Origin: Escherichia coli
GTDB lineage: Bacteria > Pseudomonadota > Gammaproteobacteria > Enterobacterales > Enterobacteriaceae
Direction: 5' to 3' (one strand)
Assembly: GCF_011045215.1 (NCBI RefSeq)
Contig: NZ_CP049201.1
Length of the DNA stretch: 64,000 bases
Shown here: positions 21,697 through 29,404 of the stretch, piece by piece
How positions within the stretch are numbered: the first letter of the stretch is position 1
Layout: the number at the start of each line of letters is the position of its first letter
Notes under the pieces: model-generated
Seen by the model: only the letters and a program-made list of their open reading frames with translations
The model's database searches: none
What the model was told of the DNA's origin: nothing
Program-made: the position numbers and the translations under genes

Positions 21697-22065
21697 TTGA
21701 TGCGTGATATTCAGATGGTTCTTGAGCGTTGGGGAGCATGGGCGGCGAGTGATAGTTCAGGCGTTGACTATTCACCTATAGCTGCTGGGTTTAAGGGACT
21801 TCTTCCCTATACCAGCAAGAAACGCTTGGCTTGTTCGGATAGTGATGCATTAATTATTGAAGGTTGTCTTGCTCGTCTAAAGCAAAAAAGACCTTATGAG
21901 CATTCGCTTCTTGTGGCACATTATTTATACAGAATATCCAAGCGTAAGATTGCAAAGGCGCGTGGAAAGGATGAGAAATTGATACGTATAGAAATACAGC
22001 TAGCCGAAGGATTTATTGATGGCTGCCTTTCCATGCTAGATCTAACATTAGATTTGGACGTTTAA
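21697..22065 (+). CDS. Putative late-gene antiterminator (Q-like)
   Basis: 122 aa ORF immediately upstream of the lysis region. Confidence 0.45.
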   Translation: MMRDIQMVLERWGAWAASDSSGVDYSPIAAGFKGLLPYTSKKRLACSDSDALIIEGCLARLKQKRPYEHSLLVAHYLYRISKRKIAKARGKDEKLIRIEIQLAEGFIDGCLSMLDLTLDLDV

Positions 22066-22067
22066 TA

Positions 22068-22090
22068 ATACGCCCCATGCAGGGGCGTAT
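22068..22090. terminator. Hairpin between Q-like gene and convergent KAP NTPase gene
   Basis: Perfect 9-bp stem ATACGCCCC-atgca-GGGGCGTAT. Confidence 0.55.
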
Positions 22091-22093
22091 TAT

Positions 22094-23425
22094 TTACTGG
22101 ATGAATGACATTTGATTAATATATTTTATCAATAACTCTCTGGGTGTAGTACTCCAAAAATTTAGGTGTTCATAATCAGTATAAACATTGGTGAATTTTT
22201 TAAGTTCTTCATCACTTTTAGGGGCAAATCGCTCATTAAGAGTAATACTGTCTTTAATTATTCCGAAGAATACAATAGATATTTCAGGAATTTGCGATCT
22301 TCTCTCATAAGAATAAGGTATTTCTTTTATGTTAAGCAGATCTGCTAAATGAGATATAGATTCTGCGGTAATTTCTTGTTTTAGTTTTTCCTTGTCACCA
22401 AAGCAATGTATGAAGACAGCTACGACAAAGATCTTATTTATTAAAGGATCACTGCTTTTGTACTCATCGTCGTTTAATAGTTGAAAAATGTTAAGATTGC
22501 GTGAAAAAGTTTGTGTTTCACGTAAGGATAAGTTGGTTCGTTGAATTAAATCACGGATAAATCTACCAGATAAACTATTAATTTCATTTAATGATTTTGT
22601 CTTGTCTACAAGGTAATTCCAATATATAACAGATGTTTTACATACGACGTGACCATTTATTAAACATGTGTCTGGAAGCGTGATGGTATATTTTATAAAC
22701 TTGTCAAGATACTTTTGTGAGTTAATACTATAACCATAAATATGATTTATCGATGCTTTTAATTGTTCTGTGTTTGTAACTAAAATAAAAAAGACATTAT
22801 TGATGTCAAAAATGTGTTTTATTGTTTCAATGACATTTGTTGAAAAACTCGGCTTACATCGGTCTAATTCATCAATTATAATTACTATCTTTTGACTTTC
22901 TGAAATGCTTTCGATGCAAGATTTAAGTGAATTTATGTTTTTCTCTGATTCCATATGGTCTTCAAGCAAATTTTCAATAGTCCCATCTATTGCTGCATTG
23001 CTTGCTTTCTTCATCGCATCTTGGAATTCTTCGGAAACTTCACTAGCCTCCTGTCGTAAAAACCAACCTGCACCAGCTTTTAGTACCGTTTTTAAACCAA
23101 AGCGAATTGCAGGAAGAGATCTCTTAATGAAGTGTTGTTTTTCTTCCTCAGGTAAAATGCTGGCAATTGCAGAGGTTATGAGAAGTAATGGAGATTCTGC
23201 ATGATCCCCTTTAAAGGCATCAATATAAACAACTTTAGATTCAGTTTCTTGCTCAATAATGAGATTTTTCAGTTTGATACTAAATTCTGTTTTCCCTGTT
23301 CCCCATGCGCCGTCTATTACCAGTGGTGAAATGTCTGCCTCTGGTTTTAGCAACTTGATGATATTTTCAGCGATGTTTCTGCGTTGGAACTCGTCACGTT
23401 CAGTGAAAGATAGTGTATCTAACAT
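22094..23425 (-). CDS. KAP-family P-loop NTPase (candidate phage-exclusion/abortive-infection protein)
   Basis: Walker A GAWGTGKT, Walker B IIIDELDRC; AT-rich; opposite strand in Q-to-lysis moron slot. Confidence 0.75.
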   Translation of the reverse strand: MLDTLSFTERDEFQRRNIAENIIKLLKPEADISPLVIDGAWGTGKTEFSIKLKNLIIEQETESKVVYIDAFKGDHAESPLLLITSAIASILPEEEKQHFIKRSLPAIRFGLKTVLKAGAGWFLRQEASEVSEEFQDAMKKASNAAIDGTIENLLEDHMESEKNINSLKSCIESISESQKIVIIIDELDRCKPSFSTNVIETIKHIFDINNVFFILVTNTEQLKASINHIYGYSINSQKYLDKFIKYTITLPDTCLINGHVVCKTSVIYWNYLVDKTKSLNEINSLSGRFIRDLIQRTNLSLRETQTFSRNLNIFQLLNDDEYKSSDPLINKIFVVAVFIHCFGDKEKLKQEITAESISHLADLLNIKEIPYSYERRSQIPEISIVFFGIIKDSITLNERFAPKSDEELKKFTNVYTDYEHLNFWSTTPRELLIKYINQMSFIQ

Positions 23426-23548
23426 AATATAAACCTATTAACTCCTACAGTAAAAAACGAATAATACGACTTTGGGATTAAAAATCATTAACGCGGTCCG
23501 CAAAAATTCTTGTAATCTGTTAAGAGTGGTTACTTCGCCACACAGCTT

Positions 23549-23580
23549 AAACCCGCCGTCGAGCGGGTTTTGTCGTTTTT
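23549..23580 (+). terminator. Candidate tR-prime-like terminator upstream of lysis genes
   Basis: Stem AAACCCGC-cgtcga-GCGGGTTT followed by TGTCGTTTTT. Confidence 0.4.
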
Positions 23581-23721
23581 GTTGCTGGGGATTCGTTGGG
23601 CCTGGCCTATCCAGCAGTTATCCATTGGTTCGGCTCTTTGACGTTTCCGCTTCTGATTTGCGGTACATGATGTTCCCTCAATTTGCACCTGCTGTATCAG
23701 CGAGGTGAGAGATAACTACAA

Positions 23722-24048
23722 ATGCCTCATAACCCAAATACTTGGCTGGACTTGGTCCAGAGCTGGTGGCGTGGAGACACACCGCTGGGCGCAGTGATTA
23801 TGTCGATTGTTATGGCTGGTTTGCGTATCGCCTACTTTGGTGGTGGTGGCGGCTGGAAGCGAAAAACGCTCGAGATTTTGCTCTGTGGCGCTCTGACTCT
23901 GACTTTTGCATCCGCGCTTGAGTATGTCGGATGGCCTAAATCACTTTCTGTTGCCATTGGTGGTGGCGTTGGGTTGATCGGTGTCGATGCTATTCGTGGG
24001 GCTGCAATGAGAGTAATCGGTAATAAGTTTGGTGGCTCTAAGGAGTAA
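23722..24048 (+). CDS. Putative holin
   Basis: Small hydrophobic protein directly upstream of endolysin. Confidence 0.6.
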   Translation: MPHNPNTWLDLVQSWWRGDTPLGAVIMSIVMAGLRIAYFGGGGGWKRKTLEILLCGALTLTFASALEYVGWPKSLSVAIGGGVGLIGVDAIRGAAMRVIGNKFGGSKE

Positions 24049-24051
24049 TTT

Positions 24052-24528
24052 ATGCAGGTACTAAATTCCCAGCGTAAAGCTTTCCTCGATATGGTGGCAT
24101 GGTCAGAAGGAACGGATAACGGGCGACAACCGACACGTAACCACGGTTATGATGTTATTGTTGGCGGCGAACTGTTCACTGATTACTCCGATCACCCTCG
24201 CAAACTTGTCACGCTAAACCCCAAACTCAAATCAACAGCCGCCGGGCGTTATCAGCTTCTTTCACGCTGGTGGGATGCTTACCGTAAACAGCTTGGTTTG
24301 AAAGACTTCTCCCCCAAAAGCCAGGACGCAGTGGCATTGCAGCAGATTAAAGAGCGTGGCGCTTTACCGATGATTGATCGCGGTGATATCCGTCAGGCTA
24401 TCGATCGTTGCAGCAATATCTGGGCGTCATTACCCGGCGCTGGTTACGGTCAGTATGAACATAAAATCGGTGACCTGATTGCCCGATTCAAAGAGGCTGG
24501 CGGGGTGGTAAATGAAGTTGAGCTATAA
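24052..24528 (+). CDS. Endolysin, lambda R-like lytic transglycosylase
   Basis: Near-identical to recalled lambda R (NQRKAFLDM.AWSEGTDNGRQ.TRNHGYDVIVGGELFTDYSDHPRKLV). Confidence 0.9.
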   Translation: MQVLNSQRKAFLDMVAWSEGTDNGRQPTRNHGYDVIVGGELFTDYSDHPRKLVTLNPKLKSTAAGRYQLLSRWWDAYRKQLGLKDFSPKSQDAVALQQIKERGALPMIDRGDIRQAIDRCSNIWASLPGAGYGQYEHKIGDLIARFKEAGGVVNEVEL

Positions 24529-24973
24529 GCTGGTTATCGTTGCTTTCTTCGTTACTGTCATTGGTTCTTTCATCTGTTCAGTGAATCGTTACCACAATAA
24601 AGCCATTGAATACAAAATGCAGCGTGATGAGAATGCTATGGCATTAGATTCGGCTATGGCGACCATCTTTGATATGCAGAAGCGTCAACGTGACGTAGCA
24701 GAACTTGACGCCAGATACACAAAGGAGCTTGCTGATGCTAATGCGACTATCGAAAGTCTCCGTGCTGATGTTTCTTCTGGGCGTAAGCGCCTGCAAGTCG
24801 CCGCCACCTGTGCAAAATCAACGACCAGAGCCAGCGGCATGGGCGATGGAGAAAGCCCAGGACTTACAGCAGATGCTGAATTCAATTATTACCGTCTCCG
24901 AAGTGGAATCGACAGGATAACCGCACAGGTTAATTACCTACAGGAATACATCAGAACTCAATGCATGAATTAA
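24512..24973 (+). CDS. Spanin inner-membrane subunit Rz
   Basis: N-terminal TM segment, lambda Rz-like (QRDVAALDAKYTKELADA-type motif). Confidence 0.8.
   Translation: MKLSYKLVIVAFFVTVIGSFICSVNRYHNKAIEYKMQRDENAMALDSAMATIFDMQKRQRDVAELDARYTKELADANATIESLRADVSSGRKRLQVAATCAKSTTRASGMGDGESPGLTADAEFNYYRLRSGIDRITAQVNYLQEYIRTQCMN
24735..24920 (+). CDS. Spanin outer-membrane lipoprotein Rz1 (embedded in Rz, +1 frame)
   Basis: Lipobox-like LLGVSAC followed by proline-rich region. Confidence 0.55.
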   Translation: MLMRLSKVSVLMFLLGVSACKSPPPVQNQRPEPAAWAMEKAQDLQQMLNSIITVSEVESTG

Positions 24974-25582
24974 AAGAGGCAGATTGATCGTGTTTTCGAA
25001 GTGTTATACCACGCCCGTTCTGTTAATTTGGCAAAATCTGTTCTGATGCAATGAGTATCGAAAGATTTATTGGACTGGTTGCTTTGGTTATCACTGTTAT
25101 CGCTGGAGTTGTTGGCCTAGGGCGTATCCGTGGCACTAGTAAAAGAAGAGGTTAAAACTGCTCTGTTATACACTGAAGTTAACGCAGCGGCTAAGCACTC
25201 AGCAGCAGGACACCGTGTAGAGGCAACGGAAGAGGCCAGAAATATACAGCAGACTATTAACCATATTCCTGGTGACTCTGTTGAGCGCGGTATGCATAAG
25301 AAATACAAACGTACAATTTGAAGTGGTATATTTTTCTTGTTAGTAGATGAATATAATATACCACACAGAATACGATATAATTATTGCTCATGCTTACCTA
25401 AATATGAAAAACAATAAAGTTATAAGTAGACAAGTGTTTTGTTACTTTTAATAATTGATGTGATGTATATATTAAGATTGAAAAATTTAATCATTCTTTC
25501 CACATATAAATTAAGTGGTTCCCTTAGCTTGTCATTTTTGATGATAAGTGAGAGAATATGAACATTATATGATGGAGATAAT

Positions 25583-25894
25583 ATGTCAAACATAAAAATC
25601 AAACAAGCTATTGAAAAGATTGCGGAGTTCAGAGCAGCATCTGCTGCGATGGCTGATGCTCACATGGTTCTTATTACAGAGCTATTGAACTCAATTGAGG
25701 ATATCCGCAAAAACTCTGGTGATAATCTCTCTGAGTTTGAAAAAGGACAGGTTGCTCTCTACATAAAAATTAGCCCAGTTGTGAAAAATGGAATTTCGAG
25801 TATTGAAAAATATAATGAGTCTTTAAGTTCAGACTATGTTGAGGCTATGAACTCCTTATCTAAAATTGCGGGAGGGAATTCAAATGTCGATTGA
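25583..25894 (+). CDS. Hypothetical protein A of AT-rich cassette
   Basis: 103 aa ORF with GGAG RBS. Confidence 0.45.
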   Translation: MSNIKIKQAIEKIAEFRAASAAMADAHMVLITELLNSIEDIRKNSGDNLSEFEKGQVALYIKISPVVKNGISSIEKYNESLSSDYVEAMNSLSKIAGGNSNVD

Positions 25895-26270
25895 AGATGT
25901 TGGAAGCATCCTTGATAGATTAAAAGTAGCCAGGATCGAAAATAAAAAAATTGAAGAGTCAGCTGGAAAAGCAGAGGAAAATGCTGTTAACTCTAAGCAT
26001 ACTGATGGTAAAACACGAAGCGCCTTAACTATTACGTTTCTCTGGTTCTTTTTTTGCCTTCTTATTTTTAGCTGTCTTTTTGTTCTTTGGTATAATAATT
26101 CTGTTGTGAATTGGGCTTTAGAGTTAAAGAGCAAAGGTGTTGATGATTACGTTCAATATTTAAAGCCACTCGAGCTGGAAAAGGTATTGTCAATAATGAT
26201 TACTGCCCTTGGTACTTCATTAGGATTTATAATTGGGTATTATTTTAAGGATAAAGAAAATCATTCTTAA
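25884..26270 (+). CDS. Hypothetical membrane protein B of AT-rich cassette
   Basis: Hydrophobic segment ITFLWFFFCLLIFSCLFVLWY; start overlaps stop of A. Confidence 0.45.
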   Translation: MSIEDVGSILDRLKVARIENKKIEESAGKAEENAVNSKHTDGKTRSALTITFLWFFFCLLIFSCLFVLWYNNSVVNWALELKSKGVDDYVQYLKPLELEKVLSIMITALGTSLGFIIGYYFKDKENHS

Positions 26271-26315
26271 TATAGAGTTATCTCTAAAGATAACGAATTT
26301 TAATAGGAGGGTAGA

Positions 26316-26618
26316 ATGTCTGAACTGAATTATGAAGCAATAGGTCGCTGCAAAATCCTTAATGAAAAGATCAAAGATCTTCATGCTGAACGAATGAAAG
26401 CTATTGGTGATTTACGTACTGCTGTCTATGCCCTTCATCAGAAAGGGAATGTAAACCTCATCCCACCAGAAATTGTTGAATTCAACCCCCAATCGCTTAC
26501 ATCCCTTGTAGAGAAGGTTGGTCACTATGATGGTGAGCTGATGCGAGCTGTACATGAGTACAACAACTGGTGTGTAGAAGCAGGCGAGAAACCCGTAAAA
26601 CTTATAAAGCTAGACTGA
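26316..26618 (+). CDS. Hypothetical protein C of AT-rich cassette
   Basis: 100 aa ORF with AGGAGG RBS. Confidence 0.45.
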   Translation: MSELNYEAIGRCKILNEKIKDLHAERMKAIGDLRTAVYALHQKGNVNLIPPEIVEFNPQSLTSLVEKVGHYDGELMRAVHEYNNWCVEAGEKPVKLIKLD

Positions 26619-26643
26619 AACAACAAATTTATGCAAATCATTA

Positions 26644-26667
26644 GCCTCGCACATGCGGGGCTTTTTT
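26644..26667 (+). terminator. Rho-independent terminator after AT-rich cassette
   Basis: GCCTCGCA-ca-TGCGGGGC stem followed by TTTTTTAT. Confidence 0.5.
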
Positions 26668-26703
26668 ATGCGCACCACACATGCACATCAAAGAGAGTCT
26701 TCA

Positions 26704-27054
26704 ATGCCGCCACGAATCCCAAAAGCCTGCCGTGTTCGCGGTTGCCGCCATACCACGACTGACCCGTCAGGCTACTGCGAAAGCCACAAAAGCGAAGGCT
26801 GGAAGCAATACAAACCTAGACAATCCCGTCATCAGCGCGGCTACGGTTCGAAGTGGGACAGTATCCGCGCGCGTGTCCTGAAGCGTGACAAAGGCCTGTG
26901 TCAGTTATGTCTGCGTGCCGGTGTGGTGCGTGAGGCGAAAGCCGTTGACCACATCATCCCTAAAGCGCATGGCGGCACTGATGCCGACTGTAATCTGCAG
27001 AGTCTGTGCTGGCCGTGTCATAAGGCGAAGACGGCCCGTGAACGGCTGAAGTGA
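26704..27054 (+). CDS. HNH endonuclease (packaging-associated)
   Basis: HNH motif HIIPKAHGG...CNLQSLCWPCHKAK; start placed after terminator. Confidence 0.75.
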   Translation: MPPRIPKACRVRGCRHTTTDPSGYCESHKSEGWKQYKPRQSRHQRGYGSKWDSIRARVLKRDKGLCQLCLRAGVVREAKAVDHIIPKAHGGTDADCNLQSLCWPCHKAKTARERLK

Positions 27055-27170
27055 TAATAATTCTCAACTGTCTGAGGGGAGGGGCGGGTCAAATCCCTGT
27101 GACCTGACGTCTTCCGGACTGCCCGCCCCATCGTTTTTTTATACCCGCGAAAAATGAAATTTAACCAGGA

Positions 27171-27674
27171 GTGCCGCATATGGCTGGAACGGCGGGGCGT
27201 TCCGGGCGTCGCCCCAAGCCAACGGCGCGCAAGGCGCTGGCCGGAAACCCCGGCAAGCGAGCCCTGAACAAAGATGAACCTGTTTTTACGCCCATCAAAG
27301 GTGTTGAGCCACCGGAGTGGTTCGCAGAAGAAGATCTCCCTCTCGCCACGATCATGTGGCAACTGACAACCAAAGAACTCTGCGGTCAGGGCCTGCTGTG
27401 CGTGACTGACCTGGCGGTACTTGAGCGGTGGTGCGTGGCCTATGAGTTCTGGCGACGTGCCGTGAAAAATATTGCCAGCCAGGGCAACACCATCACCGGT
27501 GCAATGGGCGGCAGGGTCAAAAACCCGGAGCTGACCGCCAAGAAAGAACAGGAGTCCGAGATGAGCAGCACGGGGGCAATGCTCGGACTCGACCCCAGCA
27601 GCCGCCAGCGTCTGATAGGCCTGGCGGGGCAGAAGAAAGCCACTAACCCGTTTCTGAAAATCATCGAATCATGA
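27171..27674 (+). CDS. Terminase small subunit (P27-family-like)
   Basis: N-terminal [19 protein letters not shown] motif. Confidence 0.65.
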
Positions 27675-29404
27675 GCCGGAAATCTTACCCCAACGTAAAT
27701 GCTGCCAATCAGTATGCCCGTGATGTCGTGCGGGGAAAGATTGTGGCCTGCCATTTTGTGATTCAGGCCTGCCAGCGCCATCTTGATGACCTGATGGCGG
27801 AAAAAAGTAAGTCGTTTCGTTACCGCTTCGACAAGGACCTGGCTGAACGGGCCGCCAAATTTATTCAGCTGTTGCCGCACACCAAGGGTGAGTGGGCATT
27901 TAAGAGGATGCCCATCACGCTGGAGCCGTGGCAGCTCTTTGTGATCTGCTGCGCGTTTGGCTGGGTCAATAAAGGCTCCCGGCTGCGCCGCTTCCGTGAG
28001 GTGTATACCGAAATCCCCCGTAAGAACGGCAAATCGGCAATCTCTGCCGGTGTCGCCCTGTATTGTTTTGCCTGTGATAACGAGTTTGGCGCGGAAGTGT
28101 ATTCCGGTGCCACGACAGAGAAACAGGCGTGGGAAGTCTTTCGCCCGGCGCGACTGATGTGTAAACGCACACCCATGCTGACGGAAGCGTTCGGGATTGA
28201 GGTTAACGCCTCAAACATGAACCGTCCGGAGGATGGCGCGCGGTTTGAACCGCTGATCGGTAACCCCGGTGATGGATCATCACCCCACTGTGCGGTGGTG
28301 GATGAATATCACGAGCACGCCACCGATGCGCTTTACACCACGATGCTTACCGGGATGGGGGCGCGACGTCAGCCACTGATGTGGGCCATTACTACTGCCG
28401 GGTACAACATTGAGGGGCCGTGCTACGACAAACGGCGGGAAGTTATCGAGATGCTCAACGGTTCGGTACCCAACGATGAACTGTTCGGGATCATCTATAC
28501 CGTTGACGAAGGTGACGACTGGACCAACCCACAGGTGCTGGAAAAAGCCAACCCGAATATCGGGGTGTCGGTTTACCGTGAGTTTTTGTTAAGTCAGCAA
28601 CAGCGTGCGAAAAATAACGCCCGTCTGGCAAACGTCTTTAAAACAAAACACCTCAATATCTGGGTGTCGGCGCGTTCGGCGTATTTCAACCTGGTGAGCT
28701 GGCAGAGCTGCGAGGATAAATCACTGACTCTTGAGCAATTCGAGGGGCAGCCGTGCATTCTGGCCTTTGACCTGGCGCGTAAACTGGATATGAACAGCAT
28801 GGCGCGACTTTATACCCGCGAGATTGACGGTAAAACGCATTACTACAGTGTGGCCCCGCGTTTCTGGGTACCGTATGACACGGTGTACAGCGTCGAGAAA
28901 AATGAAGATCGCCGGACAGCCGAACGCTTTCAGAAATGGGTGGAAATGGGCGTCCTGACCGTTACCGATGGTGCAGAGGTGGATTATCGCTACATCCTCG
29001 AAGAGGCCAAAGCGGCGAACAAAATCAGCCCGGTCAGCGAGTCACCCATCGACCCCTTCGGGGCGACCGGGCTGTCACATGACCTTGCTGATGAAGACCT
29101 GAATCCCGTCACTATCTTCCAGAACTTCACCAATATGTCCGATCCGATGAAAGAGCTGGAAGCAGCGATTGAATCGGGACGTTTTCATCATGACGGCAAT
29201 CCCATCATGACCTGGTGTATCGGCAACGTGGTCGGCAAAAACATGCCGGGTAACGATGATGTGGTGAAACCCGTCAAAGAGCAGGCGGAAAACAAAATTG
29301 ACGGTGCAGTTGCGCTGATTATGGCGGTTGGCAGAGCCATGCTGTACGAGAAAGAAGACACGCTGTCTGATCACATTGAGTCCTACGGGATCCGCTCGCT
29401 TTAA
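27671..29404 (+). CDS. Terminase large subunit
   Basis: 577 aa ORF following small subunit, ATPase/nuclease-sized. Confidence 0.75.

Follow-up and report, generated by a model that had tools for sequence, protein, structure and literature searches.

A short hydrophobic reading frame behind Rz in an Escherichia coli prophage is very probably the 5' fragment of a decayed HK639/mEp390-type i-spanin gene

A 34-codon ORF located just after the Rz gene of an Escherichia coli prophage raises the question of whether it encodes a small membrane toxin or a lysis accessory factor, or whether it is simply a chance ORF, the three possibilities offered by a previous reading of the letters alone (hereafter, the sequence-only reading). 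The window analyzed here is a stretch of 64,000 nucleotides from contig NZ_CP049201.1 (assembly GCF_011045215.1), to which all positions refer. The ORF exists and its product, MSIERFIGLVALVITVIAGVVGLGRIRGTSKRRG in the ORF listing, is the peptide originally proposed, but the first coordinates given for it (25052-25156) are one base off and translate out of frame. It occupies positions 25051-25155 of the plus strand, stop codon included, and its start lies 78 nt beyond the stop codon of Rz (24971-24973).

The predicted transmembrane helix and basic C-terminus of this peptide are borne out by its composition. The best 19-residue Kyte-Doolittle mean is 2.63 (residues 6-24), in a segment that aligns with the transmembrane domain (TMD) of the homologs described below; this hydrophobic core ranks first among those of the 156 ORFs in the window that start with ATG and have 30-45 aa, and the basic tail is genuine. 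The length of the ORF is at chance level, with 72 ORFs of at least 25 aa overlapping the 6-kb stretch around it. Its hydrophobicity is not due to chance: PHROG 1026, a known i-spanin family, has a TMD homologous to this segment, and this significant homology contradicts the chance-ORF reading as a whole. The ORF is indeed unannotated, as initially claimed: only one complete E. coli genome in RefSeq matches, and there PGAP calls just an overlapping ORF of 63 aa.

The locus is set in the late region of a lambdoid prophage. Upstream, the lambda-type lysis cassette comprises a holin (23722-24048; PHROG 126), a lambda R-like endolysin (24052-24528; PHROG 90), the lambda-type i-spanin Rz (24512-24973, plus strand; PHROG 13, E = 3.6e-64) and, embedded in Rz, the o-spanin Rz1 (24735-24920; PHROG 3198, E = 7.2e-28), all of them intact. 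This cassette is homologous to 204 phage records exactly up to position 24973, the last base of the Rz stop codon, and no further. No terminator-like site was found between Rz and the spanin relic described below, which is therefore probably transcribed on the late mRNA. Promoter-like sites at the locus occur at chance frequency. Downstream of the relic, AT-rich sequence (25322-25582; GC 0.23-0.25) precedes a three-gene cargo (25583-26618; GC 0.23-0.39) related to PHROGs 21707, 20796 (a TM protein) and 4827, with no assigned function, and beyond these genes are HNH endonuclease and terminase genes. A variable cargo slot is also present between the Q antiterminator and the holin, occupied here by a KAP-family NTPase gene on the minus strand (22094-23425) and in related prophages by Kiwa KwaA/KwaB, NA37-domain proteins or an N6/N4 methyltransferase.

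The 34-codon ORF and the 63-codon ORF that overlaps it (25130-25321, plus strand, +1 frame; hypothetical protein WP_001385440.1 in the PGAP annotation) match successive parts of the same family. The 34-aa ORF matches positions 5-35 of the 85 positions of PHROG 1026, a profile of Rz-like spanins, with an E-value of 5e-4, and the 63-aa ORF matches positions 46-84 (E = 4.6e-10). When one A was removed by hand, the resulting 89-aa product matched positions 5-84 of 85 (E = 2.9e-18); the whole profile is thus covered only by the repaired product and not by the 34-aa ORF as it stands. A DNA search with positions 24950-25350 retrieved similarity just after the endolysin in the phages LMessi, CharmingMan, Fostie, SaltyDalty and mEp390, where the matched features carry the name Rz-like spanin. 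At the matching place, LMessi and CharmingMan present a single uninterrupted i-spanin ORF, MGFETLIGIAAAVIAAIAGAFGLGHIRGTSKAEAKADQQ...VNHMPGDDVDRELRTNWTRKG, and a lipoprotein o-spanin, MYSRLLTICLAMMLIVSC..., overlaps it in a different frame. The 34-codon ORF aligns codon by codon with the intact homologs over their residues 1-31, and the remainder of the LMessi/CharmingMan spanin aligns with the 63-codon ORF, which from position 25145 represents the 3' part of this i-spanin pseudogene and corresponds to its periplasmic domain. Identity between the repaired product and intact family members is 49-54%.

The breadth of this family was apparent only with an exhaustive HMMER search and tblastn, as a word-indexed protein search returned just the 63-aa fragment itself. 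With the repaired protein as query, tblastn matched 41 phage records, and in 35 of them a single unbroken match spanned 80% or more of that protein, mostly residues 1-87; the HMMER search of 1.84 billion representative proteins recovered a family of mostly 85-98-aa proteins aligning end to end. This search did not retrieve any family of 34-aa proteins, although gene finders rarely call ORFs that short, and a stop near codon 34 was observed in no homologous lineage by either method. The 34-codon frame is therefore not conserved in homologous phages, the very outcome that the sequence-only reading had named as refuting its proposal: the frame runs to about 87-91 codons instead of ending at codon 34.

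Some annotations within this family deserve a comment. The 89-aa i-spanins of LMessi (PP925823; 2038-2306 of the compared piece) and CharmingMan (PP925830; 1954-2222) are unannotated, and in both records a wrong-frame 49-aa ORF is called a hypothetical protein and only the o-spanin is labelled as a spanin. Among the i-spanin relatives there is also a 139-aa protein that reads as an in-frame fusion of the i-spanin to the o-spanin periplasmic domain (..RELRESLPAPVVVDTACSWVR..), which is either a fused spanin that occurs in nature or the product of a frameshift error in the assembly it came from.

The lesion separating the two ORFs is found at positions 25141-25144 of the plus strand, where the window reads AAAA and the four intact homologs aligned all read AAA; in the DNA alignment, this column is a single one-base gap in every homolog. 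The extra A shifts the frame and leads to the TAA stop at 25153-25155, and deletion of one A restores the 89-aa ORF. The TMD and the periplasmic domain are consequently no longer in one reading frame, since the extra A places the periplasmic part in the +1 frame. In addition, an 8-nt deletion between positions 25050 and 25051 (plus strand; alignment columns 52-59) has removed the GAGG Shine-Dalgarno (SD) sequence that precedes the start codon in every intact homolog aligned (n = 4). The anti-SD duplex energy at the 34-codon ORF is +0.6 kcal/mol, versus -5.6 to -6.9 kcal/mol in the homologs, and it ranges from -6.4 to -8.6 kcal/mol in the four neighboring genes checked.

The overlapping partner gene is damaged as well. 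An o-spanin relic is located at 25242-25343 in the third frame of the plus strand, with an ATA at position 25242 where the DNA alignment shows ATG in all four homologs, a degraded lipobox (LSAVC), and a stop codon (25341-25343) only 15 residues past the Cys, around which the AT-rich sequence begins; homology with intact cassettes fades at about 25289-25345. The 33 remaining residues are identical to the N-terminus of the LMessi o-spanin at 15 positions (45%), without gaps (BLASTP, E = 7e-8). A PHROG scan of this 33-aa relic gave no match, and its identification rests on the in-register DNA alignment together with the pairwise BLASTP. With its ATA start, degraded lipobox and short tail, it does not constitute an overlapping cognate o-spanin lipoprotein gene. 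Gene decay is therefore directly visible at this locus, as four separate defects.

On the other side, the last ~14 codons of a GH19 endolysin are recognizable at 25010-25054 of the plus strand (HARSVNLAKSVLMQ*), with a stop codon that overlaps the ATG of the 34-codon ORF. By translation comparison and DNA alignment, HARSVNLAKSVLMQ resembles the endolysin C-termini ..RRALFNLAKSVLV of LMessi, mEp390, Ec1344 and Chris1. The spanin relic thus adjoins a GH19 tail and retains the place right behind the endolysin that this gene has in mEp390, LMessi and Chris1. The same interval contains a 20-codon ORF (24984-25046, plus strand; MIVFSKCYTTPVLLIWQNLF) with a TTG start and an SD-like AAGAGG sequence right after the Rz stop codon; its TGA (25044-25046) precedes the ATG of the 34-codon ORF by 5 nt, and no PHROG matches it. 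In principle, re-initiation at the 34-codon ORF after this 20-codon ORF is a small possibility.

The known system closest to these remains is the overlapped spanin pair of the HK639/mEp390 type (i-spanin PHROG 1026, for example mEp390 gp51; o-spanin PHROG 1275), with HK639/mEp390 listed as a two-component spanin family (Kongari et al., 2018; PMC6139136). The relic has in common with it the N-terminal TMD, the GLGxxRGTSK motif, of which the 34-codon ORF carries RGTSK, and the NxQQTxNH motif, as well as the gene order directly after a GH19 endolysin and an o-spanin frame starting inside the 3' end of the i-spanin. In contrast to this type, the i-spanin gene in the window is split by a one-base insertion and lacks an SD, its o-spanin lacks an ATG and is truncated, and the whole relic stands behind a complete and unrelated lambda-type cassette. 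The embedded Rz/Rz1 spanin of lambda (PHROG 13/PHROG 3198) belongs to the same functional class and has the same topology, an inner-membrane protein with a TMD paired with an outer-membrane lipoprotein, but Rz shows no significant sequence relationship to the relic.

The distribution of this allele among relatives tells more about the region than about the peptide. An identical frameshifted allele is present in all 11 related prophage loci, and positions 24901-25600 are 100% identical in 10 of them, the eleventh differing by one base outside the ORF. The invariant block extends over 1.8 kb (24800-26600) in the 11 loci and includes the 3' end of Rz, the relic, the AT-rich non-coding DNA and the cargo, whereas the flanking lysis and terminase genes outside it differ by up to 5-10% per 200-nt bin. 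Since this invariance is block-wide and extends to non-coding DNA, it provides no specific evidence on the 34-codon ORF, and selection on the peptide cannot be deduced from it; the block looks like a recently spread module rather than the outcome of selection on the peptide. In the assembly collection, 254 blocks contain the exact 63-aa ORF (WP_001385440.1). An exact 35-mer of the intact-frame allele was absent from IMG/VR contigs, where the four matches all carry the extra base, and from metagenome contigs, so the date of the frameshift cannot be bracketed. Judging from these copies, the frameshift is real and fixed in the lineage. Among 5426 complete E. coli genomes, the sole high-identity megablast match was VTB97420v (NZ_CP178690.1), 99.27% identical to window positions 21950-28350 over 6.4 kb, with nearly all of the 47 mismatches in the terminase region; this pattern shows that the window contains a closely related but different prophage copy.

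Substitution rates add to this picture. The repaired window copy has a Ka of 0.29-0.35 against the intact homologs, which differ among themselves by a Ka of 0.09-0.17 with similar Ks. This Ka excess lies mainly in the C-terminal part and fits relaxed constraint: Ka/Ks for the window copy is 0.14-0.74 there (0.42-0.74 with three of its four homologs), whereas the intact genes give 0.11-0.29 among themselves. Over the N-terminal 30 codons, Ka/Ks against the intact homologs is not raised (0.09-0.29), a comparison with little power given so short a segment.

This last result can be read in two ways. Instead of being a dead fragment, the lone TMD with its basic tail might have been kept as a micro-protein, acting as a membrane toxin, a modulator of lysis timing or a dominant-negative factor on membrane lysis proteins. 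Such a role could account for the low N-terminal Ka/Ks and for a frameshifted allele that is both widespread and identical, and it would be compatible with a core that is the most hydrophobic of 156 comparable ORFs, with the probable presence of the ORF on the late transcript (given the lack of a terminator-like site after Rz) and with an upstream SD-bearing 20-codon ORF that might permit re-initiation. However, low N-terminal Ka/Ks is equally expected of a recently inactivated gene, the invariance is common to the flanking non-coding DNA, a stop near codon 34 has no counterpart in any homologous lineage, and the ORF has no SD, its ancestral one having been deleted. As regards a toxin in particular, Pfam, NCBIfam and PHROGs gave no above-threshold match to a toxin, holin or other family; the hits to DUF1328 (19.3 bits, cut-off 27) and NF010228 (19.7 bits, cut-off 71) reflect generic transmembrane similarity. 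Rfam, which covers described families only, gave no match at E<=1 in 24500-25800 and hence no known antisense RNA. Type I toxins and phage membrane micro-proteins (Hok, Ldr, TisB and similar) are alike in size and also have a single TMD with a charged end; unlike them, the window peptide has no family match, known antisense RNA or translation signal, and its TMD derives from a spanin anchor. These observations speak against the toxin interpretation and leave the micro-protein reading in general improbable. The suggestion of a lysis accessory factor survives in part: a link with lysis exists by ancestry, the peptide corresponding to a former i-spanin membrane anchor, but not as an independent factor.

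The remaining alternatives concern the frameshift itself. Two rare Arg codons in a row can induce +1 frameshifting in E. coli, and at AGU-AAA-AGA-AGA a pause of the ribosome at the rare AGA codons could let the Lys-tRNA shift from one AAA onto the next, overlapping one, rebuilding the 89-aa i-spanin. By inspection, AAA-AGA-AGA fits a shift-prone site, permitting perfect re-pairing of tRNA-Lys in the +1 frame with two AGA codons next but no stimulatory element, and the product would equal the repaired protein, with its end-to-end match to PHROG 1026. Nevertheless, the intact homologs are single ORFs reading AAA-GCG-GAA without such a site, so that the shift is not conserved in related functional genes; all copies being identical, comparative support is also lacking. 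The o-spanin partner that such a product would require is dead, the SD is deleted, and the raised C-terminal Ka argues for relaxed constraint in that part. Programmed slippage is accordingly even less probable than a retained micro-protein. Taken jointly, there is a slim chance that the TMD fragment, through re-initiation, or the 89-aa form, through a +1 slip, is still made and acts as a membrane lysis modulator or toxin; if true, this would be a case of a pseudogene fragment turned micro-protein. Finally, the split lies in a short A run, as might be expected if a sequencing or assembly error in a homopolymer had disrupted a gene that is really intact. However, 11 loci from independent assemblies, among them a complete genome and four IMG/VR contigs, all read AAAA, the intact-frame 35-mer is missing from the viral and metagenome contigs, and the gene pair carries further, independent lesions, namely the SD deletion and the damaged o-spanin. 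Barring one systematic error in all of these assemblies, their agreement leads us to reject this explanation, whose probability is close to nil.

Therefore, the 34-codon ORF is very probably the 5' fragment of a dead HK639/mEp390-type i-spanin gene, a redundant and decayed relic of mosaic recombination. We infer both the order of events that follows and the redundancy argument. The ancestor of this HK97-like prophage would have carried a cassette like those of present-day mEp390, LMessi and Chris1, composed of holin(s), a GH19 endolysin and an overlapped i-/o-spanin pair. Recombination may then have brought in the lambda-type S/R/Rz/Rz1 genes, replacing the part containing the holin and the GH19 endolysin, with a right junction near the end of the old endolysin. 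The old spanin pair would have been left downstream as a passenger, presumably redundant because the intact lambda-type Rz/Rz1 pair in front supplies the spanin function, and would then have decayed. The decay is seen directly in the sequence: a one-base insertion has split the i-spanin into the 34- and 63-codon ORFs, an 8-base deletion has taken the SD, the o-spanin start has become ATA and the o-spanin body has been lost beside the AT-rich cargo region. Little or none of the peptide is likely to be made, and it lacks a partner to work with.

In terms of annotation, WP_001385440.1 and the 34-codon ORF should be labelled together as one frameshifted i-spanin pseudogene. The 34-codon ORF is an ordinary pseudogene fragment, mostly of annotation interest, and does not open a new biological question. 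Nevertheless, the locus offers a clean example of the swapping of lambdoid lysis cassettes, in which the recombination scar retains the last codons of the replaced endolysin together with its decaying spanin pair.
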